64,000 bases of DNA from a virus (taxonomy: Duplodnaviria > Heunggongvirae > Uroviricota > Caudoviricetes). Both the position numbers and the translations under genes were made by a program. Shown piece by piece: positions 1,460 through 63,488 of this stretch (position 1 is its first letter; every line of letters starts with the position of its first letter). The stretch lies in IMG/VR virus record IMGVR_UViG_2681813233_000007; one strand, 5' to 3'. The notes beneath the pieces were generated by a model. It was given only the letters and a program-made list of their open reading frames with translations. It was not told the DNA's origin and did not search any database.

Positions 1460-2069
1460 GAATAATTATGTTCTTCTTAATTATGCTGAATTAAACGAAA
1501 AGGGGCTGGCAAAACTCGTCAAAGAAATCAGCAAAGGTGGTTACAAGATAGCGAGGGTGATCCCTGCAAGTAATGGCAGGAAGAAAGATGGGATCATGAC
1601 GCGCACGTTTACCCTTATTGGTATTGATGAACAGACAATGGAAGTTCAGGTTAACGATACCGGCGATATATCTGGGATCAAACTGAATGGTAAAACAGTA
1701 CCGTTCAAGCCAGTAAAAACAATGTCGGCTTTGGGGCAATCTCTTGCGGCTTTATTTAATCGCGGAGCAACTTCTTTCCAGAAGTCATTAGCTCGAAAAC
1801 TTGCTCGTGCAGCAAAAAATATTGATGACGGAAATAAGAAGCGGCAGGGAGTTAAATCTAACGCTCAGAAATTAGCTGAAGCGAAAGAATCACGTGATGC
1901 ACTCCGTGAAGATATCGCTAATGCTAACGACAAACTGTCTAAACTCCAGAGCAAGTCAGACAAAGTAATGCAAGATACGGGTAACGTTAAAGCTGCCTTG
2001 TCTCAGGAAGTAGCTAAGACACGTGCTCTTAAAGAAGAAATCGCGCGTCTGGAGGATGAGCATGATTAA
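1449..2069 (+). CDS. Hypothetical coiled-coil protein, likely head-associated
   Basis: AAGGAG RBS before ATG at 1449; Lys/Ala-rich coiled-coil C-terminus; sits just upstream of the DarA-like gene. Confidence 0.4.
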   Translation: MSNKNNYVLLNYAELNEKGLAKLVKEISKGGYKIARVIPASNGRKKDGIMTRTFTLIGIDEQTMEVQVNDTGDISGIKLNGKTVPFKPVKTMSALGQSLAALFNRGATSFQKSLARKLARAAKNIDDGNKKRQGVKSNAQKLAEAKESRDALREDIANANDKLSKLQSKSDKVMQDTGNVKAALSQEVAKTRALKEEIARLEDEHD

Positions 2070-17900: not shown

Positions 17901-18833
17901 ATTCTTAGCTTGTTCCGTAAACCGTCCGGAGAAGGTCTGGAATCATTCTGGAGGACCGTGCTGGCATACCGTTTATTCCAGGGCAGGATGAAAGCCTTTA
18001 GCAATATCGATGATATTGAACGGATGTTTAATCAGGTCAAGATCGCGAAAATTAAGGCGAAGATCGAAAAAACACGTTCTGCGCTGGTGGCCTGGCGCGA
18101 TGCATTGTTTGAGCAATATAAATCACTCAGTGATGCAGATGGATGGGCGGCGCTGGAACAGTTGACGAATAATGGGGTAGATGGGGCGAAACTCGCCATT
18201 GTCCAGGCTGATAACCCCCTGGAATCACCGGCAGCACAGTGGATTAAGGTGGGGGCTGTCATCAATGCATTTGATGAAAAACACATTAGTAAGGACGATT
18301 TTGCTGATGCTGTTTCTGTTAATCGCCTGGTAGAAATGGCTACCCGCCGCGCCCGTGAGTTGAAAGATGGCGACTATGTGAATGAGTTGCCGGATACGCT
18401 CAAATCGGCAACGTGGCAGGACTATGTATCGCTGAAAAACGGCGGGGCCACTGAATCAGAGATCGCGGAAAGGCTTGAGCAGGCTGAAAGCAAAAGAGAA
18501 GAGCAGGCGGCAGTGGCTGAAGCCAGAGCTGATGAAGCGGCAAATGATGACTATATCATTGTGGTTAATGATAAGCCTATTCGCGCTAAGGCGCGTGTTC
18601 GCGGGCGCTGGTGGAGCGTCAGCGAGGACGTTGGCGCGGTTTATCTCATTGCCGACCAACCAGGTTCCTCGACAATACGGAACGCCAAAGACGCGATTAA
18701 GAAGATTGGCGGGCGTTTCTGGAATTTTGAAGTGAATCCGGTCGCGGATGTGGACTTTGACCGTCCGGCGTGGATGGTATCTACGCGTTACTCGGTAGAT
18801 GAACTGCGTAAAATAATCGCCGATGCGGCTTAA
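11997..18833 (+). CDS. darB: DarB-like giant antirestriction protein: N6-adenine methyltransferase fused to SF2 helicase
   Basis: 2278 aa; SAM motif VLEPSAGTGIF, NVPFG (NPPF-like), helicase Walker A GFGTGLGKTT and DEGH box; size matches P1 DarB. Confidence 0.85.
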   Translation: MDKLLYSISEASSLGELIEIVSRLHKLRAVATFGVRKADGVSIQKTRRAANNAAVNLLNSLPPGFDGAKLTDEQRQILAGYTGEGGLTDGEGSQYEYYTPQFMAEGIWDLFADYGIDGGHVLEPSAGTGIFQETKRQGMIMTSAELSPISGRINQLLHPEDDVNIGAFEALAAKDAMYDHAVGNVPFGEGRSGVAGLDPAYANEKNVGNYFVLRTIDKVKPGGLIVLVVPNGMTDGTKYKKLRDKVSRKAEFLGAHRMPSGTFSESGTDTVVDVWVLRKHPEAFLEMIPDTDDSTLKSANVLWDTFLKGKWFTTEGKRFVYGDMERTSFRNTLVVKKDGRVSNESMKTALSRRFDSRINWDLLGVTTQAWQGAKVGDKRLVGGIWHEFDGLKWVKDTTTKSSALDVSRYGVSTFGDLQIAFQSTNGILALSWDQISAIASDYPSVVSDEVAAMIRFAGKQREKDRERVMRGALIGQLINKALDLRNLGVNVDDKLADASRLAAAEVAKYGPPHAIKLNGLAEAGAKNWMTFTGNVKQDGSTSDLLAGRLDVTDGAAGIDFTRPEQVIAHLFSDVALNPITLGDFREAFAGELPEDDDAALEYLAKFDDIAIDGYGCLLPMDRATSGDVATKTALLVGWRDASTGEQKANFERQLAKIEEKRIFTPLNKVTVNLNARWLDRRLIKEFLAEQGYDEFKYTEPDLKVVDGILVSPDDYEGKDGVFTGYQLRTVNGKNGNEFKKANNKDGFLNQLENYLNGVKPRGQNANEYLDKIAQLEVSFNDWLRTHPQADQIAREYNDAFNGFIPFTHSDAPLGLEGISGKRIPLTYQNEEVRRLSEDGRGIMGFGTGLGKTTTALALEAYNFETGRTKRTCIVVPKAVYQNWYHEAQSFYSADAFANMMFIGLDEVRDDSGNILTAPVLDENGEPRLDSNGQPLTRNVVKESASAVIVQRMNMIPSSNWRTVIMTKEQFASIPLREKTIEENSQQAVFNAVEMGRLDLASGKHRDAQKKNKIKDQAANTGTTKKQNIPYFEDMNFDSVIADEGHNYRNSFNAGREAGQLAYLPNPAVSKMARDMAVKAAYMMKRNNGRGVVMLTATPLVNSPIDAFNMLSTVIPQEEWMRMGIITPDDFVRVFGKTATVQVQKISGEVEEKQGLVGFQNLDGLRGIFHRWTTLKTAADVGATVKIPDIIENTLQIPMTGEQETAYEELRKRAQELSRNDELTVDENGHITNDKPDDFIFSIIRDMDKVAIDPDLYASAITFQFPVELADQVKAIADALPKVAGGKVADDVDEAEEDGAGGLVSTRTSKVVKTAFSEHPTHVEIRASIELEAEILKAIAAAGIDMQQVSHPIPPKYAALIENLREGLKNGKQIVFIDEKAQHQKLRRIIASALQMPEQEIGIINATTVSQAGGIKLKKVNKPTEPTPNKNGEYKEGAWETYYSKLAQYEDYLSAKNDAGLEGMEGIAADYNEGRTRIIICNKKAEVGINLHIGTTDIHHLTLPWTPASIDQRNGRGARVGSPQEKVNVHYYCGKGTFDDFRLDTLKRKKDWIKMVMTSDMSEIANGDADDADERAIMLAANPEERRAIMARQAQVREERLKLKAQREANNALDIYLKAANAAGKDIGMMETELKSAMEQIEYYQRNLDDLIKAGTNRNGQKYALEQLSSYRKRARVLRFAITRAKDADTIMKRSRGDVERAIKSGVLDISIDVIQNPQEYMRTDKNILLHKGSYYRAVIDDRETTAIVRVEKIDGEKAQYICRIAWLDRASRYARSPGSIVTLPFDSVIEAVTFEEGVAESRATAARGVQCHQLSTILTRDQFYDAIRNGVMNVIAGKPGNAWGGGSAIKYWAYRTEDGQIALSSAYDGVIGQKIGRASDIAPERWIYPDGNDEALKREVAKIQASDNPLNIVDGEGFLQALYGYDYIQGMQAWGAQATMDDVAKEFENWMAGRGLSGRSLNKVTSEDILSLFRKPSGEGLESFWRTVLAYRLFQGRMKAFSNIDDIERMFNQVKIAKIKAKIEKTRSALVAWRDALFEQYKSLSDADGWAALEQLTNNGVDGAKLAIVQADNPLESPAAQWIKVGAVINAFDEKHISKDDFADAVSVNRLVEMATRRARELKDGDYVNELPDTLKSATWQDYVSLKNGGATESEIAERLEQAESKREEQAAVAEARADEAANDDYIIVVNDKPIRAKARVRGRWWSVSEDVGAVYLIADQPGSSTIRNAKDAIKKIGGRFWNFEVNPVADVDFDRPAWMVSTRYSVDELRKIIADAA

Positions 18834-37407: not shown

Positions 37408-38158
37408 GGTCCGCCTCATGTTTATCAGCCACCAGCGGCAATAAAGCCTTCGCCATTTCATGAACCAACATGGCATCAATGACGCCTAGCGTATGGCCCG
37501 GCTTAATCTTTAATGCGGCCTCAAGATAGCCTCTTTCCAGAGTGGTTTTTACGCTTTTCCTGGGCGCTTGTTGGGAACTATCCGGAAAATCCGGATGGTT
37601 CCCAGCCTCATAAGCTACCCGCAACCAGTGCATGAATGTTTCCGCAGACACACAACCGCAGTCCACATCGATTTTCCCGCGTTGCTGTTCCAGCCATTGC
37701 TCAAAATCTAACTTGTAAGCCTTACTTTCAGACTTAACTTTCTGAGACGCTATGCGAGCTGCTTCATACTGTTCACGAGTGACAACCGATGTAAACGCAC
37801 TGCGATCAAGGTCACTGATATCGCAAATAATGCCATCAATGGAATAATTCTTTGATGATTGGTAATTTTTATGGCGCGTACCAAAAAGAACCGTAGCGCG
37901 ACTACTACCTGGCATCGTAATGGATAGATGGCAAAAATCTTTTCCATCAGGCCATCCACGCCCCTTAGATAATTCCTTCACTAACAAGTCAATCAGTGTC
38001 ATAGCTTTACCATCCTTGCAAGGCGCTAAAGCTATTTTGGCAAGCTCCAATACTTCATCTGCTGTGTATCCAGCACCGTGACCATACATTTCGATACGGG
38101 AAATAATATCTGAAATACGCTCTTTAGTGATTCTTGTCATAGTTTTATTTCCTTGCAT
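37391..38158 (-). CDS. Hypothetical protein
   Basis: 255 aa ORF in the leftward operon. Confidence 0.45.
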   Translation of the reverse strand: MQGNKTMTRITKERISDIISRIEMYGHGAGYTADEVLELAKIALAPCKDGKAMTLIDLLVKELSKGRGWPDGKDFCHLSITMPGSSRATVLFGTRHKNYQSSKNYSIDGIICDISDLDRSAFTSVVTREQYEAARIASQKVKSESKAYKLDFEQWLEQQRGKIDVDCGCVSAETFMHWLRVAYEAGNHPDFPDSSQQAPRKSVKTTLERGYLEAALKIKPGHTLGVIDAMLVHEMAKALLPLVADKHEADHANES

Positions 38159-38346
38159 GGTTCGCCTTTACGGCAAACAGCTACACGGTCATTTCTTACA
38201 TTAACCACAGTCACCGTTCCGTCATCGCATTGAATAACGATGAAAGGGTGTTCATTCTCTTTTGTGCAATGTTGCTGTTCCCCTGCTGTAACAGTGAGGG
38301 GAATTAATAAAATAATAATTACTGCGAATTTACTAAATGTTGCCAT
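38137..38346 (-). CDS. Small secreted protein (signal peptide)
   Basis: 69 aa; N-terminal hydrophobic signal-like segment, 4 Cys in the mature part. Confidence 0.4.
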   Translation of the reverse strand: MATFSKFAVIIILLIPLTVTAGEQQHCTKENEHPFIVIQCDDGTVTVVNVRNDRVAVCRKGEPCKEIKL

Positions 38347-38370
38347 AGCAATCTTTCTTTCTGTTTTTCA

Positions 38371-38664
38371 TTATGGTTGAATCCAGTTATCTTCAATAGC
38401 AATGCTCAATCTTTGTAACCATTCTGCTAATTTCAGCATTGCTTCTCTTTCGCTTAAACCACGAGGAAAATCATCAAGCGATATTGTTGGCTTGAAGTTT
38501 CCCAAATTATCCATTTCAACGGTCAGATTTTGCTCCAGCACGGTATTCCTTACGCGGCTATTGTGCCGAAGCAAATATACTGAACGTGATTTATTGGTTT
38601 TGTGGTCGAACGTATATTCGGTAAGTATCATCTGGCTTCCGCCATGATTATTACCGCGCCACAT
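38371..38664 (-). CDS. Hypothetical protein
   Basis: 97 aa ORF. Confidence 0.35.
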   Translation of the reverse strand: MWRGNNHGGSQMILTEYTFDHKTNKSRSVYLLRHNSRVRNTVLEQNLTVEMDNLGNFKPTISLDDFPRGLSEREAMLKLAEWLQRLSIAIEDNWIQP

Positions 38665-38971
38665 AATTACTCCGTGTTAATTTTACCTTTATCGCGAACA
38701 CCTTTACCGGTTTATCGCCGAAGTGCGGGTGTGTGATTATCTTGATTTCATAGCCGTCATACGGAACATCAATTCTGCGGCTGGAATCGTCGCGCTTCGG
38801 ATATCCCTTTGTGATAATCAGGCGGTCATACTTACGGTTAACGAGGCGCTTATTCCAGTAGTCATTACACAGGCGATACTCTTCCGTTTTCTCCCCGCGA
38901 ATCATGGCATCGAAGTATTCACCTTTAACGGCAAGTTGCAGGTTAGCCATTACCTCACCTCCAGTCTCCAT
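38651..38971 (-). CDS. ASCH/PUA-like small protein (hypothetical)
   Basis: 106 aa; GEYFDAMIRGEKTEEYR resembles an ASCH-type N-terminus. Confidence 0.35.
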   Translation of the reverse strand: METGGEVMANLQLAVKGEYFDAMIRGEKTEEYRLCNDYWNKRLVNRKYDRLIITKGYPKRDDSSRRIDVPYDGYEIKIITHPHFGDKPVKVFAIKVKLTRSNYVAR

Positions 38972-39210
38972 ACCGCCTGACCAATCCGGCTGGCATGGGT
39001 ATCTTTGGATACTGTTCCGTCTTTAGCCAGCTCCATAAGAATTTTGCGCAAATCTGCCGAACGCCATTCTTCATCAGGAAATTCCTTCTCCATTGCCAAC
39101 CGCAGATTCCAGGTTGCCATCCTGAATGGATATTCCCCGCCGAGAGCTTTATCTTGCAGGGCAGCCCGGGAACGCATCACCTGCAAAACCTTCTCTTTTA
39201 CATCCATCAT
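38950..39210 (-). CDS. Hypothetical protein
   Basis: 86 aa ORF. Confidence 0.35.
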   Translation of the reverse strand: MMDVKEKVLQVMRSRAALQDKALGGEYPFRMATWNLRLAMEKEFPDEEWRSADLRKILMELAKDGTVSKDTHASRIGQAVWRLEVR

Positions 39211-39836
39211 TCCGCCTCCTGCGGCGGTTCTGGTAGCGGCATCCAGTGAGTTACTTTCGATGCCGGTTCTTCCCCATCGTCAGTAACTGCCCACCATTTG
39301 TTTCTCGACCAATCGTAATACCCTTCGAAGGTATTGCACTCAGTCCAGCCGTAAGACTTACCCCAACACCAAACATACTGTTTATCGTTCGGCATTCGCT
39401 CACTACAGCTTATCCAACTATCCGGAATTACCGGAGAGTTGCCATTTACATCGAAGTTTGGTTCTGCGTCCTGAACTAGGAGGATGTAACCATTCTTGGC
39501 TGTATCAAGTTCTAACGCCTCGGTTACGGTACCGAAATAGCGATTACCTAAATCCGCATCACAAGTGCTTACATCAATGGAAACCTCCATGCCTTCGATT
39601 AATTCTGGCAAGTTGTAAGTTTGGCTTACAGGCTCTGCTTCCAGTGATGCCAGTGCAATTCGTGCCAGCTCACGCACAACTTCAGGGGGCGCGTAACGGT
39701 CATTCAGGTCATCCCACAGGCGTAGCATGTTATCGCTACCAGGGTGAACATCCTCGTTAGTTCCGGCAAGCGCACTAATAACCTCATCGGCTGCTTCAAT
39801 AATTTTCTGTGCCTGTTCTCTGGTAATAGTGGTCAT
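39207..39836 (-). CDS. Hypothetical protein with C-terminal DUF551-like Trp-rich segment
   Basis: 209 aa; C-terminus ...WCWGKSYGW...KVTHWMPLPEPP. Confidence 0.4.
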   Translation of the reverse strand: MTTITREQAQKIIEAADEVISALAGTNEDVHPGSDNMLRLWDDLNDRYAPPEVVRELARIALASLEAEPVSQTYNLPELIEGMEVSIDVSTCDADLGNRYFGTVTEALELDTAKNGYILLVQDAEPNFDVNGNSPVIPDSWISCSERMPNDKQYVWCWGKSYGWTECNTFEGYYDWSRNKWWAVTDDGEEPASKVTHWMPLPEPPQEAE

Positions 39837-40042
39837 TTGTTAATCCTTAAAACTTTATGCCCTGGCGCAAAAGCACGTGTTTTGTCTTTGCTTATTCGCC
39901 AGCCATCCTTACGTGCCTCTTTTGCACAGCCAGCCCATGACGTACCGATATATTCACCGAAGTCTGGTACTGGATATACACCTTCCGTACACTGGCGGCA
40001 GTCACAATAGAGATGCATGGTGTAACTTGCGGCAATAGCCAT
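39833..40042 (-). CDS. Small Cys-rich protein (hypothetical)
   Basis: ORF-track 39833..40114 trimmed to the internal Met (MAIAASY...); CxC...C.C pattern. Confidence 0.3.
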   Translation of the reverse strand: MAIAASYTMHLYCDCRQCTEGVYPVPDFGEYIGTSWAGCAKEARKDGWRISKDKTRAFAPGHKVLRINK

Positions 40043-40404
40043 ATCACTCTCCTTTAGTACGCAAGTGGTTTTTCCAGCGGTTTTGCGCCGCGCTGGGCTT
40101 TTTGCAAAAACCACAATCCATCATCCCGTAATGTTTCATTAACCCCATCCGTCGGTTGCTGAGTCTCACCCACTGCCAGACGCCAGGACCGTTTCTGCGA
40201 ACTAATAGGATTTTTGCTTTACGGTTTTTCATCGCTTTGCTCTCCTGCGTTTCTTTGCTGCTCGTCGTGCCGCCGCAATACCTGTATGGCGGCGCTTTGG
40301 TGCCGGGATGATGTTGTCAGCCATCAGGACATGCGGCTTTGTAATTAGCGCAGAAGCCCAAAAACGAGTCGGATACGGTAACAAGCCGATACATGCCACA
40401 CGCA

Positions 40405-40884
40405 TTACTCACCTTCTTTGATGCGAATGCCTGCGGCGCGTGGCACATTAACTTCCACGATGCGCACTGTTGGTTTGTACATCTCAATCGCTGTCAGCCA
40501 GTCAGCGCCGGTCATACGCTTTTCTGCATCGCCATTAGTCCACTTAACCGGTACACCAATAGCCTTCATCGCAATTTCTATTTCCCCGGCAATGGCGCTT
40601 TTCCCGCAACCAGTAAAACCAGATACAACGACAAGAACTTCGCCTTTTGCTGGTTTTATTTCCCGCGCCTCCACCTCTGCAATTCGGCACATAGCATCGA
40701 TATTTGTGTCTTCCTGGCGTTTAACTTCATCCAATAATGCCAACGCGATATCTGGCGAAAAGTGCTTCATAAAATCGTTAAGCGCATTAATTCGCTGATC
40801 GAAAGGCATTACAGGCGCTTCACCAGCAATTTTTGTTTTTTCAGCAATTTCACGAAGCTTTTGATAGTCAATTTTGTTTGTCAT
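40405..40884 (-). CDS. Small P-loop NTPase (hypothetical)
   Basis: 159 aa; Walker A-like VVVSGFTGCGKSA. Confidence 0.45.
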   Translation of the reverse strand: MTNKIDYQKLREIAEKTKIAGEAPVMPFDQRINALNDFMKHFSPDIALALLDEVKRQEDTNIDAMCRIAEVEAREIKPAKGEVLVVVSGFTGCGKSAIAGEIEIAMKAIGVPVKWTNGDAEKRMTGADWLTAIEMYKPTVRIVEVNVPRAAGIRIKEGE

Positions 40885-41759
40885 GCCACTACCTCTTCGA
40901 ATTTCAACTCCAATTGGTCACCCCAGATTTCACATGATTCGGAACACGAACCAGTATCAAACCGCTTGGCCTGCACCATCGCCTGATACAAATTTCTGTA
41001 GTCGCTGTCGGCATACATTCTGGCAATCCCGTCAAGCGTCAGGTGACCACGGTACATAACGTCTTTACCTGTTCTGCGATGACCATCCCTGACGTGTTTG
41101 CCTGTAACCAGTTCATTAAAAACCCGCATCAGACCTGGTTCGTCTTTACATGCAAGCCCCAGCTTTTGCGTTGACTTTTTGATGCAAAAAACACAGTTCC
41201 CGAGGTGCTCCGGGATTTGCAAATCAAAAGGTTGTTTTCGCCACCACCGGATAACATCCGACTTATCAAAATCTGACAGCTCGGCAAGATACCGGACGCC
41301 CGGTTTCGGTTTCAGCCTACGGGGTTCGTCCGCACGAATACCCAGCCATGTGATGTAATTCCCTCGCCCAAAATGGTCATCGCAATATTTCGTGAAAGGG
41401 GTGAGTTTTAGCCTGTCAGTACAGAACGCGCCGCCGATGTATGGCGTACCGTACTTTTTAACCATGTCCATAAACGGTTTAAGCACCGGCATTCGCGTCT
41501 GAATATCCTTTGGTTCCCATTCCGTATAACCATTTGGCTGCCCAAGTTCTGGATTTATATCGACCTGCAACACCGTTAGCGGTACATTCCAGAACTTCAC
41601 AACCTCACGAATAAAGCGATACGTCAGAGGATGTTCACAGCCGGTATCCATAAAAATGAAATGGACGCTAGCGCCAGCTTTTCGCTGTGCTTCCATCAGA
41701 TGAACGAGATAAGCCGATGTTCGTCCACCTGAAAAGCTGACGACTTGATGCATACTCAC
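40881..41759 (-). CDS. PAPS-reductase-like PP-loop ATPase family protein
   Basis: 292 aa; N-terminal PP-loop SFSGGRTS; stop/start coupled with neighbours. Confidence 0.6.
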   Translation of the reverse strand: MSMHQVVSFSGGRTSAYLVHLMEAQRKAGASVHFIFMDTGCEHPLTYRFIREVVKFWNVPLTVLQVDINPELGQPNGYTEWEPKDIQTRMPVLKPFMDMVKKYGTPYIGGAFCTDRLKLTPFTKYCDDHFGRGNYITWLGIRADEPRRLKPKPGVRYLAELSDFDKSDVIRWWRKQPFDLQIPEHLGNCVFCIKKSTQKLGLACKDEPGLMRVFNELVTGKHVRDGHRRTGKDVMYRGHLTLDGIARMYADSDYRNLYQAMVQAKRFDTGSCSESCEIWGDQLELKFEEVVA

Positions 41760-41762
41760 GGT

Positions 41763-42455
41763 TTATTCCTGAACGCGCTTAAACTCGATTACCCATACCC
41801 ACGGGTTAGATAGCCAGTTATCCTGCCCGTAAATACTGCGCCAGATATCACCAAAACCAACGCGATAAACAGCTTCCGGCGGCGTAATTTTGTACATCGC
41901 CGGAGATGCGCCTTCTGCTTTAGCATCTGCCTCGCTCATATCACGCAGCCGTTCCACACGCACGTCGGTAATTTCCAGCAAAATGCGCGATGCCCAGCGC
42001 GGCATGTGAATTGATGGACGCCACCCGCCATCAAATTTTTCATTCACAGTGTGAGGTTTCCAGTCGGCATCATCGGGTATCGACCACAAGCCGTAATCAC
42101 CCGGCTTTTGCTCACAACTGGCCCGATAAATCCTTGCTGCGTTCTTCTCATCGCCACGACAAAGGTTGTCGTTCCAGTCCACACTGCAACCATCCTCATT
42201 GCCTAATATCGCCCACGCCTCACGGACCCATATGCGATCACCAACGTTACCGAACGGGCATAAACCATGTTCAGGTGCATCCATAACGTGGGTATAGACA
42301 CCATTGCGTTTCTTGGTCGGTTTACGGATAACCAGGCAGTTATCGGCCCTGACATTTTTTACAGGTCGGCGAGTCTGCGTCTTCCTTCCTTCGAGGATGG
42401 CCCTGACCATCTCATCGTTAAAAATCATCCCGCGTTCTTTCATTTTTTGATCCAC
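41763..42455 (-). CDS. Hypothetical protein with ASCH-like N-terminus
   Basis: 230 aa; MIFNDEMVRAILEGRKTQTRRP. Confidence 0.35.
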   Translation of the reverse strand: MDQKMKERGMIFNDEMVRAILEGRKTQTRRPVKNVRADNCLVIRKPTKKRNGVYTHVMDAPEHGLCPFGNVGDRIWVREAWAILGNEDGCSVDWNDNLCRGDEKNAARIYRASCEQKPGDYGLWSIPDDADWKPHTVNEKFDGGWRPSIHMPRWASRILLEITDVRVERLRDMSEADAKAEGASPAMYKITPPEAVYRVGFGDIWRSIYGQDNWLSNPWVWVIEFKRVQE

Positions 42456-42459
42456 CTCA

Positions 42460-43455
42460 TCAGTTATTGAACGTGATCACTCCGCGCTCGATGGCGAAGT
42501 CGAAAAGCTGGTTAGCTGCTACGTAAAGGCGTATGCCATGTGCTTTTTCCCATGCCCGGACATCGTTTTCTGCGCTTCTGGCGCAGTCATCGCAAAGAGG
42601 AACAGCCCAGCGGTCGTGTTCGTTTAACGAGCGGGCGCGGTACATGAATGGGTGATTAACCTTGCCGCCGCAGCCTACACACGGGCGAGACACCACAAAC
42701 CGGAGATAAGCCGGGCTTTTTCCGAGTAAGGTTTTTGGACGGCGCATATATAGGAGGCCAGAATCTTCATCGACGGACAGATTGACGATCTGCTCTGCGG
42801 AAATATCCACCAGCTCGCGGGTACTATGCTCCCAGGTAATATCCGACTCTTTCAGAGTGCCGGTAGGGATTTCAGTTTTTGGCTGACAAAATGCAATGCG
42901 ACCAGCTTCATCAGGCAGTTCGTCTTTAAGATTCCGGCGAATGGCCCAAAAGGTGAGTTCAACCATGCTCAGATCGCGATCTGGCGGAAGTTTTAACTCG
43001 CTGGCAGCCCAGTTCATAATCCAGTTGGCGCGATTCAGTGACAGTTGGTCTTCCAGCTTGCCGTATCCCTTCATCATGTATTCCGCATCATGCTTCCAGC
43101 ACAGGCGAACGGCAGAACCGTTATAGAAATGGGTGGTTAACTGGTGGCTGCAATCGCGCTTATCATGCGCCTGGCAATCGTGAATGTTGGTGCTAACCCA
43201 GTGAACGAGAGAATCCTCACCACCTAACGCGTTAAATACGCGCTCACTTTGAAAAAAGGGTGCCAGTGACTGGTTGGTAACCAGTGAATAATTCAGGTCA
43301 ACGACACCATCAGGGGTGTTTTCAGCCTGTTCACGCGGCAATGGGGATATAAGAAAACGACGTCCTGCGCCGATGTAATTGCTGGTGGGCTTATCTACAG
43401 GAAAGACAGCCACACCAGTTTCATTTACGACATATGGGGTGATTATTGCACTCAT
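42460..43455 (-). CDS. Hypothetical protein with C-terminal Cys-cluster (DUF968-like)
   Basis: 331 aa; CVGCGGK...CDDC near the C-terminus. Confidence 0.4.
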   Translation of the reverse strand: MSAIITPYVVNETGVAVFPVDKPTSNYIGAGRRFLISPLPREQAENTPDGVVDLNYSLVTNQSLAPFFQSERVFNALGGEDSLVHWVSTNIHDCQAHDKRDCSHQLTTHFYNGSAVRLCWKHDAEYMMKGYGKLEDQLSLNRANWIMNWAASELKLPPDRDLSMVELTFWAIRRNLKDELPDEAGRIAFCQPKTEIPTGTLKESDITWEHSTRELVDISAEQIVNLSVDEDSGLLYMRRPKTLLGKSPAYLRFVVSRPCVGCGGKVNHPFMYRARSLNEHDRWAVPLCDDCARSAENDVRAWEKAHGIRLYVAANQLFDFAIERGVITFNN

Positions 43456-43496
43456 AATGCATACCGACTCTGTTTTGTTCCGAGCGGTAAAATAAT

Positions 43497-43514
43497 ATGT
43501 TAGAAAACTAAAAT
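43497..43514 (+). promoter_or_regulatory. Operator-like motif ATGTTAGAAAACTAAAAT with inverted partial partner at 43520-43532
   Basis: Motif family member in the intergenic region upstream of the leftward 43455 operon. Confidence 0.5.
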
Positions 43515-43553
43515 CAATGTTCTAACGCATTTTTGAGTGCGTAAGTGATTTGA

Positions 43554-44246
43554 TCAGACTTTAAGCTGCCCTCCCTTCACCTGCATTAGCGTCAGATTTC
43601 CGCAAAAAACCGCGCCCGTGTCTATGTAGTGCTGATTCCAGTATGCTTTTGGTCTTCGTACCGGTGTGTGCCCAAAGATAAAGCGATCTGCGCCTGTAAT
43701 TTCTCCACCAATGCCATCTATCGAATCACCGACGCGACTGCGCGACCAGACAACATCAAAAAGCGACACATCCTTACCGAACTGGTACTCTCCACCTGGA
43801 TAGTCGGCATGGGCTATAACGATAGTTTCATGCCCGGTGTTCAACTCAATGATATATGGCAGACGCTTTACCAGCTCCACCAGCGCCCTGGCTAATATTT
43901 CCTGATCAGCGTCCAGCATGAAGAACCATTGTCCGCCATTCATTAGCCAGTTATTCACGTTGCCATCAGGACTTAACGCATCGATCATTAATCGCTCGTG
44001 GTTTCCCATAACCGACCGAAACCAGGGCATCTGCAATAGCTCCAGGCATTCAACATTTTCGGTGCCGCGATCGATAAGGTCGCCAACCGATATCAGTAAA
44101 TCCTGCGCCGGGTCAAAATCCACACGATGGAGTTCGGACATCAGTCTGGTGTAGCAACCATGCAGATCACCAACAACCCATATGTTTCTGTAGCCAGAAC
44201 CATCAATACGGCTATATAAATTCACTTCATGCATAGCCTGTGTCAT
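43554..44246 (-). CDS. ppp: Ser/Thr protein phosphatase (lambda PPase-like metallophosphatase)
   Basis: Motifs GDLHGC, GDLIDRG, GNHE. Confidence 0.8.
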
Positions 44247-44554
44247 GCGGCAACCTTCTCACGCAGCCAGATACAAACCGGACCATCTTCAGTGTCATGA
44301 ATAGAGCCAACAAACCAGCCTTCACCCTCTGGTCGCTCAGGTTCCCAGGCGGCAATATCGGGACCAGCTGCGTCCAGATCAAAATCATCTTCATCCATAC
44401 TGCGAATAGTCCACTGAAGATTATTTCCCTTCATCCAGGCGTCAAATTCCTCAGTGGAAATATATTCACGGCCTGCGCAAAACTTTTCATACTCCGGATG
44501 TGTCCAGCAGCCATATTCATCACGTTCTACCGGCATTTCTTTAATTGTGCTCAC
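44243..44554 (-). CDS. Hypothetical protein
   Basis: 103 aa ORF, coupled. Confidence 0.35.
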
Positions 44555-44775
44555 TCTTCATCCTCCAAATCGGCAACGGCCTCCATCACATCAGAACCGC
44601 GAATAAACTCAAAAGCACGGCAAGCCATTTCAAACACCTGTTGTTCTTGCGGATGCGGTGACTCCCAATACTTAAAACCAGGTCGATGCTCGTAACCCAT
44701 CATGGAATAAAAATCGCCAGCAAGTTCAATCGCGGCATCAACAAGTTCGCGATTTGTCATCGTCTGTTCTGTCAT
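44551..44775 (-). CDS. Hypothetical protein
   Basis: 74 aa ORF, coupled. Confidence 0.3.
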   Translation of the reverse strand: MTEQTMTNRELVDAAIELAGDFYSMMGYEHRPGFKYWESPHPQEQQVFEMACRAFEFIRGSDVMEAVADLEDEE

Positions 44776-45047
44776 TTTGTTTTCTCCTGTCTGAACATCA
44801 CTATCATCAGGTCGCCTTTTGTCGCTATCCTGGCTGTTGTGCCTGGTTCTATGCGGCTAAGTTCAAATGCGTCATAGAACGCTTCTAATGCCTTCTGGCG
44901 TAGTTCCTGTTTGCGCCGTTTTTTCCACTGTTTTAGGAAAATGGAACCCAGCCATCGCCATGTACTGGACATGATGTAAAGCCAACCGAGAAGTGCCAGT
45001 CCGGTATTTAGGGCCGTATCGATCGTTATCGTGGTGTCGATATTCAC
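44772..45047 (-). CDS. Small membrane protein (hypothetical)
   Basis: 91 aa with a hydrophobic helix. Confidence 0.3.
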   Translation of the reverse strand: MNIDTTITIDTALNTGLALLGWLYIMSSTWRWLGSIFLKQWKKRRKQELRQKALEAFYDAFELSRIEPGTTARIATKGDLMIVMFRQEKTK

Positions 45048-45292
45048 TGTGGAGGCTCCTGCTTTTCTGCCTTCAATACCATGCGAGAACCATCATCCAG
45101 CTCCCAATTAATTTCACCGCCTTCAGCCATGACTAGATGCCAAACGAGTTGTGCGGCCTCGTTGGTTACATCGCGACCGCGATCATTGCCGACACGACGT
45201 TTTGTTCCATCCCCTAAGTCACGCATTTTTGCCAACACGATTGTTTTTGATAGCGGTGAAAAACCAAGCTGTAGTCGTGCTGAATTGCTCAC
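45044..45292 (-). CDS. Hypothetical protein
   Basis: 82 aa ORF, coupled. Confidence 0.3.
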   Translation of the reverse strand: MSNSARLQLGFSPLSKTIVLAKMRDLGDGTKRRVGNDRGRDVTNEAAQLVWHLVMAEGGEINWELDDGSRMVLKAEKQEPPQ

Positions 45293-45960
45293 TGTTTGCC
45301 TCCTTTGCGAATCCGGGCGGCTAACTCGTCACATATGTGCGTCAAAGAGAAAAGTTTGATTGATGGGTGTTCGCGCATCATCTCCAATCCCTGCGCCCGG
45401 ACTTCAGCTAGGAAAGCATCAGTGGTTGGCGTTTCAGGTATCTGTCTCCTCATCCGTTCTACTGCATGATTGAACCCGAAGTCTTCCGCGAGAGATACGT
45501 CATCCATATTGTCATTGTCATCCTCAATATCCAGTGGTTCTGGAATTGCAGACTTTATTCCCGCATTCTCCGCCGCCAGCGCCGCGCGATTACCCTCCAG
45601 CTCTGCAATGCGCTGTTTTGCGGTATCAAGTTCAATCGATAATTTTTCCAACTGCTCTTTATGCTTCTTGTATTCCTGATATGCGTGCCAGGACTGACCT
45701 TTGCGCACACTATCAGTAATATCAGTAATCTGTTCTGGTGTTAGCGTAGTCAGTGGCTGTGCTGGGAAAATCAGCACTTTCCCGGAATCCCAATCAAAAC
45801 CAGCGTGAATTGACTGAACCTCAATTGAAGGTGTTGAACCAACGCTGCCAGGCGAATGAACAACGATCGTTACATCCATATCGCGACGATGGCTGTGGTT
45901 ATTGGACAAAATACGATTCACCAACTCAGAAAATTTGGAGAATTTCATGCGGAGCCTCAA
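45289..45960 (-). CDS. Coiled-coil protein, paralog of the 46364 ORF (Ead/Ea22-like)
   Basis: Shares AAENA and TDAFLAE(V/I)RA segments with 46364..46867. Confidence 0.4.
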   Translation of the reverse strand: MRLRMKFSKFSELVNRILSNNHSHRRDMDVTIVVHSPGSVGSTPSIEVQSIHAGFDWDSGKVLIFPAQPLTTLTPEQITDITDSVRKGQSWHAYQEYKKHKEQLEKLSIELDTAKQRIAELEGNRAALAAENAGIKSAIPEPLDIEDDNDNMDDVSLAEDFGFNHAVERMRRQIPETPTTDAFLAEVRAQGLEMMREHPSIKLFSLTHICDELAARIRKGGKQ

Positions 45961-46367
45961 TATGCAAAATAGACAGTTGCCACACCGTTATAGTGATCAA
46001 ACGATACGGCGTTTACTTCATAGCTGGCAGGAAGCTTCGAGCCGAGAACGTATCCGGGCCACGTTTTCCATGGAATTTCTCTACTCTCACTATCCCCATA
46101 TACCGTACATCCAAGCGAACCTACAGCCTCGTCAGAACGTTTGCCGCATGTTATGAAACCTATATTTTTCTTGCTGGCCTTAATGGCGATTGGGTGAACA
46201 CTGGCTGATGCATTGGCAGCACGCTGTGACTGTTGGTTTGCGATATTCGCAGAGTTCGCAGCAGCTACAGCAGCCGTGGTCGCGGCGGTAGATGCCACAA
46301 TAACTGCTGAAGCCTGCGCCTGTTGGGTAATGGTCAGCAATGCCGCCACAAAAATCATCTTCTTCAC
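45957..46367 (-). CDS. Secreted periplasmic protein with Ala/Thr-rich linker
   Basis: Signal peptide MKKMIFVAALLTITQQAQA then low-complexity linker and a globular domain with 2 Cys. Confidence 0.45.
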   Translation of the reverse strand: MKKMIFVAALLTITQQAQASAVIVASTAATTAAVAAANSANIANQQSQRAANASASVHPIAIKASKKNIGFITCGKRSDEAVGSLGCTVYGDSESREIPWKTWPGYVLGSKLPASYEVNAVSFDHYNGVATVYFAY

Positions 46368-48054: not shown

Positions 48055-48633
48055 ATGCAGAAACAGAGCTACTGGGAGAAACAGAGACAAAAAGCCATGC
48101 AAAGATTGGCTGACCCGGCCTGGCGAGAGGAACAAAGGGCAAAGCGCCTTCAACAAGCTCAACGCCAGCAGCAGCGAGCGAGAGAAAAAGCCGCATCGCC
48201 TGAATATCGGCAAAAGAGAATTGAAAAAGCAAAGCAATATGACCAGCGGAGAAAAGAGAAAGCTGTATCCGCTCCGTCCAAAAAAACACGCACGTCACGC
48301 GGCCTGAAGGGCAGATCACTCACAGCCGATGAACGCCGGATACAGACCGCTATCGGTACTCTCCCCTGCATTGCCTGCCATATTCACGGGCAACATAGCC
48401 CAGTGGTATCCCTGCACCATATCTTCGGGAGAACGGCAGAGAACGCGCATAAATATGTCCTCCCTTTGTGTAAATGGCACCACCAGTACGCAGCGCCAGC
48501 CGAGGTCCGAGAACAATATCCCTGGCTGGTCCCTGTTCATGCTGATGGAAAAATAGGCGGAAAAGCAGATTTCATACGGCACAATGCCGATGAAATGGCG
48601 TTGTATCAGATGGCAATTGAATTGATAAATTAG
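48055..48633 (+). CDS. ref: Ref recombination enhancement function (HNH endonuclease)
   Basis: 192 aa; C-terminal half near-identical to P1 Ref as I recall it (LPCIAC..H...VSLHHI.GRTA...PLC.WHHQ.AAPAEVRE.YPWLVPVHADG). Confidence 0.85.
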   Translation: MQKQSYWEKQRQKAMQRLADPAWREEQRAKRLQQAQRQQQRAREKAASPEYRQKRIEKAKQYDQRRKEKAVSAPSKKTRTSRGLKGRSLTADERRIQTAIGTLPCIACHIHGQHSPVVSLHHIFGRTAENAHKYVLPLCKWHHQYAAPAEVREQYPWLVPVHADGKIGGKADFIRHNADEMALYQMAIELIN

Positions 48634-60310: not shown

Positions 60311-61216
60311 ATGAGATCAGTCGCTTTCAAAAATATCTTCATCTATCGTCTTTCACGCGAAGTTAGCTGGGATACTGCAGAAGTAAATGCAGCCCTTAGC
60401 AAGTTTGTGTTTACCCCATGCGGTTCTCAGGATATGGCTAAAGCTGGTTGGACCCCCGTTCTTGGCGACAACCTCACCCATGAATACCAGGGTTTTCTTC
60501 TGATACAGCATAAACGAGAGGAAAAAATCCTACCCTCTCAAGTGCTCAAAGAAGAGTTACAGAAAAAAATCCTGACACTTGAAGAAGAGCAAGACAGAAA
60601 GCTGAAGAAGACTGAAAAAGATTCGCTGAAGGATGAAGTGCTTCACTCTCTTCTTCCTCGTGCTTTCACGAGAAAATCAGTCGCTAAAATCCTGATAGAC
60701 CGAAGCAATCATCTGGTTTTTGTCGAGGCCAGCAGTGCTAAAAAAGCAGAGGATCAGCTGGCTTTGTTACGGAAATCGCTTGGCAGCTTGCCCGTTGTCC
60801 CCTTCTCTCCGAAAGACCCATTAGAACTGACCATCACTGGCTGGATTAAAAATGGCTTCCCGAACGGTTTCCGTGCCGGTGAGGAAGCGACCTTAAAAGC
60901 ATTGCTTGATGATGGCGGCGCGGTCCGCTGCAAAAAAGTGGACCTGCTATCCGACGAGATCATGAGTCATATAGAAGCTGGTAAGGTTGCAACCACAGTT
61001 GCGGTTAACTGGCAAGACCGTGCATTTTTCAGACTGAATGACGATATGAGTATCAAGGCTTTGTCGTTCAGCGACGAATTGTACGACCAGAACGACGATA
61101 TTGATCGAGAGGATGTTGCGCAACGATTTGACGCTGACTTTATCCTATTTACTGCTGAATTATCAGCGATGTTCACCTCGCTAGTGGAGGCCGTTGGTGG
61201 TGAAGCAGAACGTTAA
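60311..61216 (+). CDS. rdgC: RdgC-like recombination-associated protein
   Basis: 301 aa, collinear with E. coli RdgC as I recall it (FKN...[59 protein letters not shown]). Confidence 0.8.
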
Positions 61217-63488
61217 CCTTCGATATGGTTCAGTTTGCAGTGGAATTGAAGCCGCGAGCATTGCCTGGGAACCGTTGGGTATGCGTCCGGCGTGGTTTGC
61301 TGAAATTGAGCCTTTTCCATCTGCCGTTCTTGCGCACCGCTGGCCTCATGTCGCCAACCTTGGCGATATGACAAAACTTGCCAAAAAAGTCCTGGCTGGG
61401 GAAATCGAATCCCCTGATGTGCTCGTCGGGGGAACACCTTGTCAGGCATTCAGTATCGCGGGATTACGTGGTGGGCTTGATGATGAGCGTGGCGCGCTAA
61501 CTTTAAAGTATGTGGAGCTTGCAAATGCAATTGACGACAAACGGGCTGAGTCATTTCTCAAACCAGCCGTTATCGTCTGGGAAAATGTCCCAGGAGTCTT
61601 GTCATCGGCAGATAACGCCTTCGGATGTTTCCTTGCCGGATTGGCTGGAGAAGATGCGCCATTTGAACCAGGTGATCGACCTGAATCAGGAAAAAGTAAC
61701 ACGTTCTGGCGGTGGGATGGCAAAACCGGTTGCCATGCTCCAAAGTGGCCGCAGTGTGGTTGTATTTATGGACCGCAGCGAAAAGTGGCCTGGAGAATCC
61801 TTGATGCCCAATACTTCGGAGTGGCACAACGACGCCGACGCGTGTTTGTTGTCGCAAGTGCTCGAACAGACCTCGATCCCGCAACGGTACTTTTTGAGTT
61901 CGAAGGCGTGCGCCGGAATATTGCGCCGAGCCGAAAAAAGAAGGAAATCGCTTCCGCCATTATTGCAAATGGCGCTGCAATCAGTGGCGAAAGCCTAAAT
62001 CCATGCCTACACGCTGACATGCCACCCGGTATGAAATCGACGAAAGCCGTAAACGCTTTCAGGATGGCAGCATTTGGGGAATATATTGACGATGAAACCG
62101 CATCGACAGTAAAGGCAAGAGATTTTAAAGATGCCACTGACCTTGCCGTTTTTAGCAGCACAGGAGCAGGTTTTTGGTCAGAAGGGCATGGTACATTGCG
62201 GGCACGTGAGCAAGAAAGCCATGAGCATCTTGTTACATTGGCTTTTCCTGAGCGTATGAGCGGTACACAACATGCTGCAACTAAGAATACTTCACCATCT
62301 CTAATGGCTAAAAATCCAACAGCTGTTTGCTATGAAGTAAGAAACGCAGAAGTAGCTGTCCGCCGTCTTACCCCTGTCGAATGTGAAAGGCTGCAAGGTT
62401 TTCCTGAGGGGCATACGTTGATCCCGACGGAAAAGCGTAAAAAAGTTTCTTCAGATGAACTGGCATACCTTCGCAATCACTATCCAGATTTAAGCGAAGA
62501 AGAGGCCGCGATGCTTGCAGCTGACGGACCGCGTTACAAAGCGATCGGCAACAGCATGGCAGTTCCTGTTATGCAATGGATAGGGTGTCGCATTCTTGCG
62601 ACCGTAGCGGATAAACAGCAAAAAACAATAAATACCATTACCTACACAAGAAAACTCCGGACTCCGGATGAATATGAACGCCCAATATTCAAATGGGTAG
62701 GCGGTAAATTCTCAGAGTTGCCTACAGTGCTTGAGCATCTACCACACGGCAAGCGGTTAATAGAACCATTCGTTGGTGGCGGTTCCGTATTTACGAATGC
62801 AGGATTTCGCCACAACCTGCTTAATGATATTAACGGTGACCTGATTAACTTCTATCAGACATTGCAGCGAGAGGGACATTCGCTCGTCACGCTGGCATAT
62901 AGTTTTTTCAAAAATTACAACAACGCTGACGCTTACCTCGAAGTGCGTGAGGCATTTAACAGAGGAAAGTATGACCAACTACATCATGCTGCTGCCTTTT
63001 TGTACCTTAATCGGCACTGTTTTAATGGCGTAACGCGGTACAACCAAAATGGCGAGTTCAACGTAGGGTATGGCAAATACAAAGCGCCCTACTTCCCACA
63101 TGCAGAGATGGAGGCATTTTTGGCTGATGACGTACTCAAAAACACTTCCTTTGTATCAGGTGACTTTGCTAGCGTCATTGAGGCGGCTGGTGAAGACGAT
63201 GTGATTTTTTGTGATCCGCCGTATGAACCGCTTCCGGATACAGAGGGATTTACCAGCTATTCAGGAAATAGCTTCCGTTTCGACGAACAGAAACGGCTTG
63301 TATCACTGTTGGTGGATGCCCACCAGCGCGGCGCTAAGGTAGTGATAACAAATAGTGGTGCTCCAAACATCCGTGAACTATATGAAGGAAACGGGTTTAA
63401 AGTACATCATATGGCAGCCAGACGGTCGGTTTCCTGCAAGGCGTCAACACGTGTAGTTGCTAACGATATAATTGCAATAATGAAGTAA
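61194..63488 (+). CDS. dmt: Bifunctional DNA methyltransferase: N-terminal C5-cytosine MTase fused to C-terminal Dam-like N6-adenine MTase
   Basis: [12 protein letters not shown] (PCQ) and ENVPG in the N-half; KWVGGK and DPPY in the C-half; start overlaps the rdgC stop. Confidence 0.85.

Follow-up and report, generated by a model that had tools for sequence, protein, structure and literature searches.

Four closely spaced leftward genes at positions 40,405–43,455 of a tailed-phage sequence (Caudoviricetes; IMG/VR record IMGVR_UViG_2681813233_000007) raise the question whether their products form one nucleic-acid modification system. The stretch that was analyzed comprises 64,000 nucleotides (nt) and is called the window here. 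It had been predicted from its letters that the four genes encode, in a coupled cluster, a PP-loop ATPase resembling 3'-phosphoadenosine 5'-phosphosulfate (PAPS) reductase, a small P-loop NTPase, an ASCH-like protein and a Cys-cluster protein, and that the cluster might offer another layer of genome protection besides the DarA/DarB antirestriction set and a bifunctional methyltransferase. The answer that emerged is a different one. The four genes are an arbitrary slice of an interlinked leftward chain of at least 20 genes, and they are probably accessory genes whose products act independently of each other. The PP-loop gene is an ortholog of ninC of phage lambda in another setting, and fusions of NinC to DNA methyltransferases provide a lead on its role.

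NinC, a PP-Loop Protein Shared With Lambda

The PP-loop protein aligns without gaps to lambda NinC over 285 of its 292 residues with 80% identity, and it matches phrog_424 (5e-93), which is placed in the PHROG category "moron, auxiliary metabolic gene." Judged by its sequence, the gene is an ortholog of lambda ninC and not a new element. Lambda does not require ninC (PMC10695390). In mobile elements, PAPS-reductase-like genes are common but have no assigned role, and lambda is listed among the elements that carry such uncharacterized homologs (PMC11437467). NinC is still among the lambda proteins without an assigned function.

The assignment as a PP-loop, PAPS-reductase-like protein stood up: the loop SFSGGRTS is present, and the Pfam family PAPS_reduct matches with an E-value of 2.8e-9, although over residues 6–72 only. 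An AlphaFold2 (AF2) model, with a predicted local-distance difference test (pLDDT) score of 88, shows a generic PP-loop fold followed by 26 disordered C-terminal residues. NinC has both hallmarks of the PP-loop ATP pyrophosphatases, i.e., a Rossmann-like fold and an N-terminal SGGxD/TS loop. In 81 homologs, the motifs SGGRTS, DTGxEH, GIRADE, GNCxFCxKK (with Cys189 and Cys192) and CSESC (with Cys272 and Cys276) are invariant, as is Cys113. These motifs and cysteines are largely kept in 109 more distant representatives, in which Cys113, Cys189xxCys192 and Cys272xxxCys276 are conserved.

A closer assignment to the DndC or QueC type was not supported. With 17.8 bits, the match to the DndC family (TIGR03183) remained far below the cut-off of 290.4, the CysH equivalog (NF002537) 21.9 bits against 154, over residues 5–82 only, and the TilS family of NCBIfam 16 against 606; no QueC family appeared in the NCBIfam scan of NinC. 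The best match in the defense-system library PADLOC was SspD (1.8e-13), restricted to the N-terminal half (residues 5–148).

NinC might be an auxiliary metabolic enzyme, i.e., a reductase of PAPS or of adenosine 5'-phosphosulfate (APS), or a sulfurylase-like enzyme, which boosts sulfur assimilation by the host. The PAPS_reduct match and the PHROG category would suit such a role, and CysH and APS reductase are the best solved structures, both by sequence and in Foldseek searches. However, the TM-scores in Foldseek, where CysH was the best match, were only 0.39–0.5, and the sequence match is confined to the nucleotide-binding residues. The C-terminal catalytic motif of CysH is ECGLH. No motif of this type is present in the C-terminus of NinC, which reads GSCSESCEIW, with GSCSESCE in the place of ECGLH. 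Moreover, the ATP-type PP-loop SGGRTS is complete in NinC, whereas the aligned segment of CysH reads SSSFG, and the methyltransferase fusions described below would have no rationale in sulfur assimilation. Because the family cut-off was missed by far, ECGLH is absent and the ATP-type PP-loop is intact, genuine PAPS reductase activity of NinC is unlikely, and a metabolic role of this kind is hardly to be expected.

Copies of ninC with 80% identity to that of the window, the same value as for lambda (75–88% for fragments), were also encountered in assemblies of unrelated organisms, e.g., Pseudomonas, Oceanobacillus, Kitasatospora, Bradyrhizobium and Segatella (loci L163–L173, L176, L188, L189, L209, L221, L223, L228, L230, L231, and L236). 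Several of these suspect copies are located on contigs of ~48.4 kb, and the longer loci contain a lambda-type NinI at lambda spacing. The copies in unrelated genomes were discarded as apparent contamination with lambda DNA on the basis of the contigs and the NinI spacing, and not of identity to lambda.

Fusions of NinC to DNA Methyltransferases

A survey of 109 diverse NinC representatives, each of at least 250 amino-acid residues (aa), for additional Pfam domains revealed Dam (PF05869) in five of them, D12 in one, and no other domain. NinC–Dam fusions include P0094, P0106, P0117, and P0119, as well as L201, L204, and L205; P0094, from Vibrio phage 44E38.1, is named "Dam methyltransferase with PAPS reductase domain" at NCBI. 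More elaborate arrangements are found in a Sodalis prophage (L197), where a C5-cytosine methyltransferase, NinC and Dam are combined, and in a prophage of Mixta tenebrionis (L195), where NinC is combined with a C5-cytosine and a D12-class N6-adenine methyltransferase. The fused NinC domains retain the PP-loop and the cysteines. Since PF05869 and PF02086 (D12) are different Pfam families, fusion of NinC to a methyltransferase arose more than once. Thus, two unrelated families of N6-adenine methyltransferases, besides C5 methyltransferases, are found in fusion with NinC. Literature searches for fusions of PAPS reductase and methyltransferase yielded none.

The Mixta protein bears directly on the window. 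It is encoded by an open reading frame (ORF) of 1099 aa (L195:2402–5698) and is related to the Dmt-like bifunctional methyltransferase of the window (Table 1), with 49% identity over residues 9–379 and 52% over residues 490–763. Inserted exactly between the two methyltransferase halves is a NinC domain, which is complete and shares 53% identity with that of the window. In the window, the two components of this fusion, NinC and Dmt, are encoded by separate genes. As two proteins encoded 20 kb apart here constitute a single polypeptide in L195, this is "Rosetta-stone" evidence for a shared process. In the proximity of ninC, i.e., within two genes in ~43 genome loci, C5 methyltransferase genes were found in three loci, and a Dam and an N6_N4 methyltransferase gene in one locus each.

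These observations suggest how NinC might function. It would bind ATP via its intact PP-loop and then adenylate an oxygen of its substrate. The conserved cysteines would serve sulfur or metal chemistry: an iron-sulfur (Fe-S) site might be formed by Cys113 and the CxxC motif, with sulfur possibly being carried by the CxxxC dyad of the flexible tail, an arrangement described for DndC (PMC10853773). Given the recurrent fusion of NinC to unrelated adenine and C5 methyltransferases, the substrate would most likely be phage DNA, to which NinC may be targeted through the methyltransferase, and NinC may operate in the same antirestriction process as Dmt. That NinC acts on DNA together with methyltransferases is tentatively proposed here as a real possibility. 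It is rather doubtful whether the NinC proteins, including that of lambda, are stand-alone DNA-modifying enzymes for which orphan methyltransferases of the Dam or Dmt type provide the targeting, and it is unlikely that the modification would specifically be of the sulfur type. If these proposals were correct, NinC might perform a minimal form of DndC/SspD-like sulfur insertion that yields a phosphorothioate or a thio-base, and the DNA of lambdoid and P1-like phages would bear an antirestriction mark that has gone undetected so far.

Several points weigh against these proposals. The methyltransferase fusions represent only ~5% of the NinC representatives, and adjacency alone is weak evidence because nin regions often contain methyltransferase genes in any case. 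In the model, the C-terminal 26 residues of NinC, which include the dyad, have pLDDT values below 50. Literature searches gave no function for any NinC, and we know of no report of an unusual modification of lambda DNA. Neither components of Dnd or Ssp systems, including the recognizable DNA-binding partners DndD/E and SspB/C, nor a cysteine desulfurase were found in the two genes on either side of ninC in the ~43 loci. For the ASCH protein discussed below, the assignment is based on motif and fold, and the core of its model is confident, whereas its insert is not. With respect to independent action of the genes, ASCH genes of three or four alleles (57–99% identity) are found directly upstream of ninC genes that are 98–99% identical; the adjacency could hint at a preferred pairing, with a weak functional preference, rather than chance. 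We read the adjacency as the result of a ninC cassette that may have spread by recombination at a common junction.

On balance, the suggestion in the original prediction that the PP-loop protein is linked to DNA modification or genome protection has partly been supported: it gained comparative support from fusions exclusively to methyltransferases and from the Mixta protein, whereas the four-gene system to which the link had been attached is unsupported, as set out in the next section. The fusions, together with the separate ninC and dmt genes in the window, lead to a testable hypothesis, i.e., that NinC acts on DNA in a methyltransferase-based antirestriction pathway.

The Four Genes as Part of a Mosaic Operon

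The four leftward genes were found as ORFs where they had been predicted, and they are closely spaced. At the first junction, the TGA stop codon of the DUF968 gene, which encodes the Cys-cluster protein, is followed 4 nt on by a GTG codon and 16 nt on by an ATG at 42443, which stands behind GAGGTG. The ATG is more likely to be the start of the ASCH gene than the GTG, as most homologs begin with MKERG. The TAA stop of the ASCH gene is separated by 3 nt from the GTG start of ninC, and the stop of ninC and the start of the Ea22-like gene overlap as ATGA (−4 nt), with GAGG located 8 nt upstream. However, such tight coupling is generic to the whole operon. According to the ORF coordinates, overlaps of 1–4 nt join nearly every gene from ~47809 down to ~38371, and the sole break in this chain is a gap of 98 nt at 43456–43553. 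Since the same tight overlaps link almost the entire chain, the four genes are an arbitrary slice of it. The ninR region of lambda is classically described as such an interlinked chain.

The 8 kb around the locus are 99.9% identical to E. coli plasmids of ~93 kb, e.g., CP057047. Phage D6, a P1-like phage-plasmid, shows 93% identity to the surrounding region, of which only 55% is covered. In the D6 record, the equivalent leftward operon is located between ref and pmgU, and the annotations of its genes refer to similar genes in lambdoid phages. The locus lies in the variable region of an E. coli phage-plasmid of the D6/P1 type.

It could be imagined that the four genes, expressed from an operator at 43497, constitute one modification module, comparable to the Dnd/Ssp systems or to 7-deazaguanine pathways, in which catalysis is performed by the PP-loop protein, whereas the P-loop protein serves as an ATPase partner, the ASCH protein as a base reader, and the Cys-cluster protein as an Fe-S or DNA partner. 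The tight junctions and a conserved inverted repeat upstream would be consistent with such a module, and so would the match of NinC to SspD in the defense library, the weak resemblance of the Walker-A module to APS kinases (see below), and the fact that ASCH genes of differing alleles immediately precede ninC in 12 of 80 loci. This arrangement was examined in surveys of 79 ASCH loci from IMG/VR (45–100% identity), 80 NinC loci (at least 93% identity) and 78 genome loci, the latter with one genome per species, ~43 of which were usable and were scanned for two genes upstream and two downstream.

The genes assort independently in these surveys. In the 79 ASCH loci, ninC is the next gene downstream in ~8 and a DUF968 gene is located upstream in ~14, and the majority of the loci lack all of the other genes; in one locus (L014), ninC downstream of the ASCH gene is reduced to its first 23 codons. 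The gene upstream of ninC in the 80 NinC loci is an unrelated ORF of 182 aa in 54 cases, an ORF of 147 aa in 13, the ASCH gene in 12, and the DUF968 gene in one. Among 931 plasmid records matching the 8-kb region, DUF968 was found in 114, ASCH in 427, and NinC in 77. In D6, the ppp gene, the inverted repeat, the DUF968 gene and the Ea22 module are present, whereas the ASCH gene and ninC are absent. Conversely, lambda and Shiga toxin (Stx) phages have ninC without the other three genes adjoining; in Stx phage PA2, it is located in the leftward early region near genes for an exonuclease, a RecT-like protein and an Ea22-like protein. In the ~43 species, the neighbors of ninC include genes for NinG, SSB, replication proteins, DUF3268, DUF968, Q antiterminators, Lar, and methyltransferases, with no constant partner. 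The 182-aa ORF upstream of ninC (L096–L162, e.g., L109:233–781) resembles, by eye and not by a Pfam call, an HD phosphohydrolase (...SVAQHAVL...EALMHDATEAY...).

Partner genes are missing as well. DndA/IscS-like, DndD/SspC and DndE/SspB partners were found neither in D6 nor in the window region, and QueD/E, FolE and TGT/DpdA families had no match among the ORFs neighboring ninC or the 18 ORFs of the window that were scanned. Because no such partners were found, a four-gene modification system is unsupported. Besides, the putative Fe-S partner belongs to a family of HNH nucleases (PMC5714182). Thus, the conserved four-gene module was rejected on the basis of the neighborhood surveys and the plasmid counts; it is very improbable, being already largely refuted by the co-occurrence data.

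The more plausible account, which we regard as fairly probable, is that the locus is a mosaic slice of independently acting accessory genes, with NinC and the ASCH protein having the roles proposed for them here. The leftward operon would have been built by recombination from gene cassettes of lambdoid nin and ea regions, and each of the four gene products would most likely act alone. In this respect, the locus is ordinary: it combines the known families NinC, DUF968, ASCH, and Ea22, and a catalog entry as a new four-gene modification system would be unjustified. Its interest lies in the lead that it gives on the role of NinC.

The ASCH Protein and a Possible Role in RNA Metabolism

The ASCH protein matches phrog_874. 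The Pfam family ASCH scored 18.2 bits, which is below the gathering cut-off of 21.2, and the domain is split by an insert of ~70 aa. The predicted ASCH-like character was nonetheless confirmed at the level of the fold: in a Foldseek search with the AF2 model, all top matches were ASCH proteins, including YqfB (9kyf; E-value 7e-4, target TM-score 0.74). The pLDDT of the model is 71 overall, above 85 in the core and below 50 in the insert (residues 80–155). When the PDB was searched by sequence, neither the protein nor its profile produced a useful match, and informative results came only from the comparison of folds and from an alignment with YqfB of E. coli MG1655 made by hand. In this alignment, the octapeptide G23-R-K25-T-Q-T28-R-R30 (GRKTQTRR) corresponds to GRKTITIR, with K25, T28, and R30 matching K21, T24, and R26, respectively. 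Furthermore, E181 corresponds to E74 and W205 to Y89, and a closing strand (W)VIEFK is common to both proteins. K25, T28, R29, E79, D177, and E181 are invariant in 52 homologs, and R30 is conserved in at least 90% of them.

The catalytic residues of YqfB are K21, T24, R26, and E74 (PMC6972931). Since this set is kept in the ASCH protein of the window, it is more likely to be a hydrolase than a passive "reader." By motif and fold, its probable function would be to release N4-acyl groups from cytosine, with nucleosides or tRNA (N4-acetylcytidine, ac4C) as the substrate; ASCH proteins of both motif types were reported to remove ac4C from tRNA (bioRxiv 10.64898/2026.02.27.708502). The gene is, therefore, a candidate for a phage-encoded N4-acylcytidine or tRNA ac4C deacylase.

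The insert (window positions 41990–42220) is rich in Cys, Trp, and Asp (GNEDGCSVDWNDNLC...SCEQKPGDYGLWSIPDDADWKPH) and cannot be modeled by AF2. In some homologs of the ASCH protein, e.g., P0155, a shorter, unrelated segment is present in its place. The operon contains, ~3 kb further downstream at 38651–38971 on the minus strand, a second, small ASCH-like ORF of 106 aa. With GEKTEEYR as its octapeptide, it belongs to the GKER type, and Pfam ASCH matches with an E-value of only 0.065; its counterpart in plasmid NZ_CP067430 was named "ASCH domain-containing protein" by PGAP. Hence, the operon holds two different ASCH proteins.

The putative deacylase brings in the principal alternative for NinC, according to which NinC, and perhaps the ASCH protein too, act on tRNA of the host or the phage, thereby retuning translation or evading anticodon nucleases. 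NinC would then be an anticodon-loop enzyme like TtcA, TtuA, or TilS, performing thiolation or a lysidine-like amination, and the ASCH protein would erase ac4C. Indeed, tRNA thiolases and TilS are equally close to NinC in fold, and the neighboring gene would encode a suitable deacylase. However, the two genes are usually apart, the TilS score given above is far too low, and no fusion to a THUMP, PUA, or TilS C-terminal domain was found in the 109 NinC representatives, where DNA methyltransferases were the sole partners. We therefore regard an action of NinC on tRNA as improbable, and DNA as the preferred substrate in the tentative proposal for NinC outlined above.

The Ea22-Like Protein and Its Walker-A Module

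The 159-aa protein encoded downstream of ninC has an N-terminal Ea22-like segment, which scores 28 bits for PF13935 (cut-off, 27) and is 28% identical to Ea22 of lambda over the first ~80 residues only. Its C-terminal part is a module of ~90 aa, which contains GFTGCGKS at residues 88–95 in agreement with the Walker-A consensus GxxxxGK[ST]. Of the predicted small P-loop NTPase, the Walker-A-like motif was thus recovered; the motif, however, belongs merely to a C-terminal module of an Ea22-like protein. The score for APS_kinase in Pfam was 14.7 bits, below the cut-off of 21.1, and the E-value in NCBIfam was ~0.004. All matches in the PDB had E-values above 0.3, and only ~75 residues follow the first strand. 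The 564 homologs of the module are all at least 95% identical, Ea22-like, and enterobacterial; because of this high identity, the conservation of the module cannot be judged. The label "P-loop NTPase" is unproven.

All of the weak best matches of the module (window positions 40405–40680) are APS kinases, with NGD aligned to the DGD of the kinases. Such a likeness is curious beside a PAPS-reductase-like gene, yet the module occurs without NinC in D6, L015, L017, and L060; in D6, where the ASCH gene is absent as well, it is part of orf100. The protein may be a modular early protein with a Walker-A-like module that would be unrelated to the function of NinC.

The DUF968 Protein and the Inverted Repeat

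The predicted Cys-cluster protein was found to be a member of the DUF968 family, its cluster being the CxxC...CxxC zinc finger of an HNH domain. The 331-aa protein matches PF06147 over the full model (153.3 bits against a cut-off of 27.8; E-value 8e-45) and phrog_96, "HNH endonuclease" (7.6e-104). The motif CxxC...H...N...H...CxxC reads CVGCGGKVNHPF...LNEHDRWAVPLCDDC and is part of a C-terminal His-Me/HNH zinc-finger domain at residues 161–325, which is preceded by an N-terminal domain of 160 aa that matches phrog_11007. DUF968 has been classified as a family of His-Me finger proteins (PMC5714182), and nin regions of lambdoid phages typically encode members of the DUF968/DUF1364 group of these proteins (PMC5714182, PMC4118853). 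The homolog in D6 is gp029, annotated as "similar to P1 pdcB." Presumably, the protein is a PdcB-like, His-Me/HNH nuclease-like component of the phage backbone.

In the 98-nt gap upstream of its gene, the perfect 7-bp inverted repeat GTTAGAA-N14-TTCTAAC is located. The motif occurs once in the window, whereas no occurrence is expected by chance, and it is kept in D6 and in more diverged relatives with different flanks. To judge from the comparison with D6, the repeat is, like the DUF968 gene, part of the ppp/DUF968 backbone of D6 and not of a NinC module. Folded as RNA, the repeat forms a hairpin (z = −2.9), which is followed by AUAUUAUUUU. A scan of the gap revealed neither a consensus sigma-70 promoter on the same strand nor an intrinsic terminator, the G-C pairs in the hairpin being too few for the terminator rule. 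The P1 C1 operator was considered and rejected as its identity: ATTGCTCTAATAAATTT has no match with up to three mismatches anywhere in the window. Thus, of the operator-like motif that had been noted at 43497, a unique and conserved repeat stood, without a match to the C1 operator and without a promoter; it is equally possible that it represents an operator or an RNA hairpin.

Organization of the Region

The features of the window are listed in Table 1. Directly upstream of the DUF968 gene, a metallophosphatase is encoded that shows 62% identity to lambda NinI in tblastn and corresponds to D6 gp030, annotated as "similar to P1 ppp." A search of positions 38000–46000 for known RNA families gave no match in Rfam.

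Table 1. Positions of genes and of the inverted repeat in the window.
Feature	Position	Strand	Length	Remarks
DarA	2023–4017			Pfam
DarB-like methylase/helicase	11997–18833		2278 aa	Pfam
Ea22-like ORF	40884–40405	minus	159 aa	
NinC ORF	41759–40881	minus	292 aa	
ASCH ORF	42455–41763	minus	230 aa	Probable true start ATG at 42443
DUF968 ORF	43455–42460	minus	331 aa	
Inverted repeat GTTAGAA-N14-TTCTAAC	43499–43526		7-bp arms, perfect	In gap between ppp and DUF968 genes
Ppp/NinI-like metallophosphatase	43554–44246	minus		PF00149 at 1e-15; directly upstream of DUF968 gene
Ref-like nuclease	48055–48633			Pfam
Dmt-like bifunctional methyltransferase (C5-cytosine and D12-class N6-adenine)	61194–63488	plus		PF00145, PF02086

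Comparison With Known Systems

The DUF968 protein is comparable to the DUF968/DUF1364 group that includes YdfU and YbcO of E. coli and PdcB of P1, with which it shares the full PF06147 match and the association with nin regions (PMC5714182), but the protein of the window has the additional N-terminal domain of 160 aa. The Ea22-like protein resembles the lambda Ea22/Ead family in its N-terminal ~80 residues and in its location in an early accessory operon, whereas lambda Ea22 does not have the C-terminal GFTGCGKS module. The ASCH protein has in common with E. coli YqfB and the ac4C erasers the ASCH β-barrel fold, the GRKTxTxR octapeptide, the glutamate, the aromatic residue and the final VIEFK strand; it differs from YqfB by its size of 230 aa, the Cys/Trp-rich insert of ~70 aa and an extended N-terminal half.

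NinC can be compared with three systems. With CysH and APS reductase, the best solved structures being 6vpu and 2goy, it shares the DTG and G-x-R-x-(D/E) motifs, but the nucleotide-binding core alone aligns, and ninC is located among phage early genes and not in a cys operon. With DndC, SspD and BrxP, it shares the PP-loop fold, the SGGxxS loop and a set of cysteines comprising a CxxC motif and a separate dyad (for DndC, PMC10853773), and its methyltransferase fusions suggest a link to DNA as well. However, NinC has ~290 aa, whereas the DndC profiles have 447–481 positions, its scores are far below their cut-offs, and it has no DndA/D/E, SspA/B/C, or PglZ partners nearby. The closest counterpart is NinC of lambda itself (NP_040635; ninR region, PHROG 424), which is 80% identical, of equal length, contains all of the motifs, and is likewise encoded in a chain of genes with overlapping starts and stops. 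The two differ in their setting: lambda ninC is located between ninB and ninD, whereas ninC of the window is located downstream of the ASCH gene and upstream of the Ea22-like gene.

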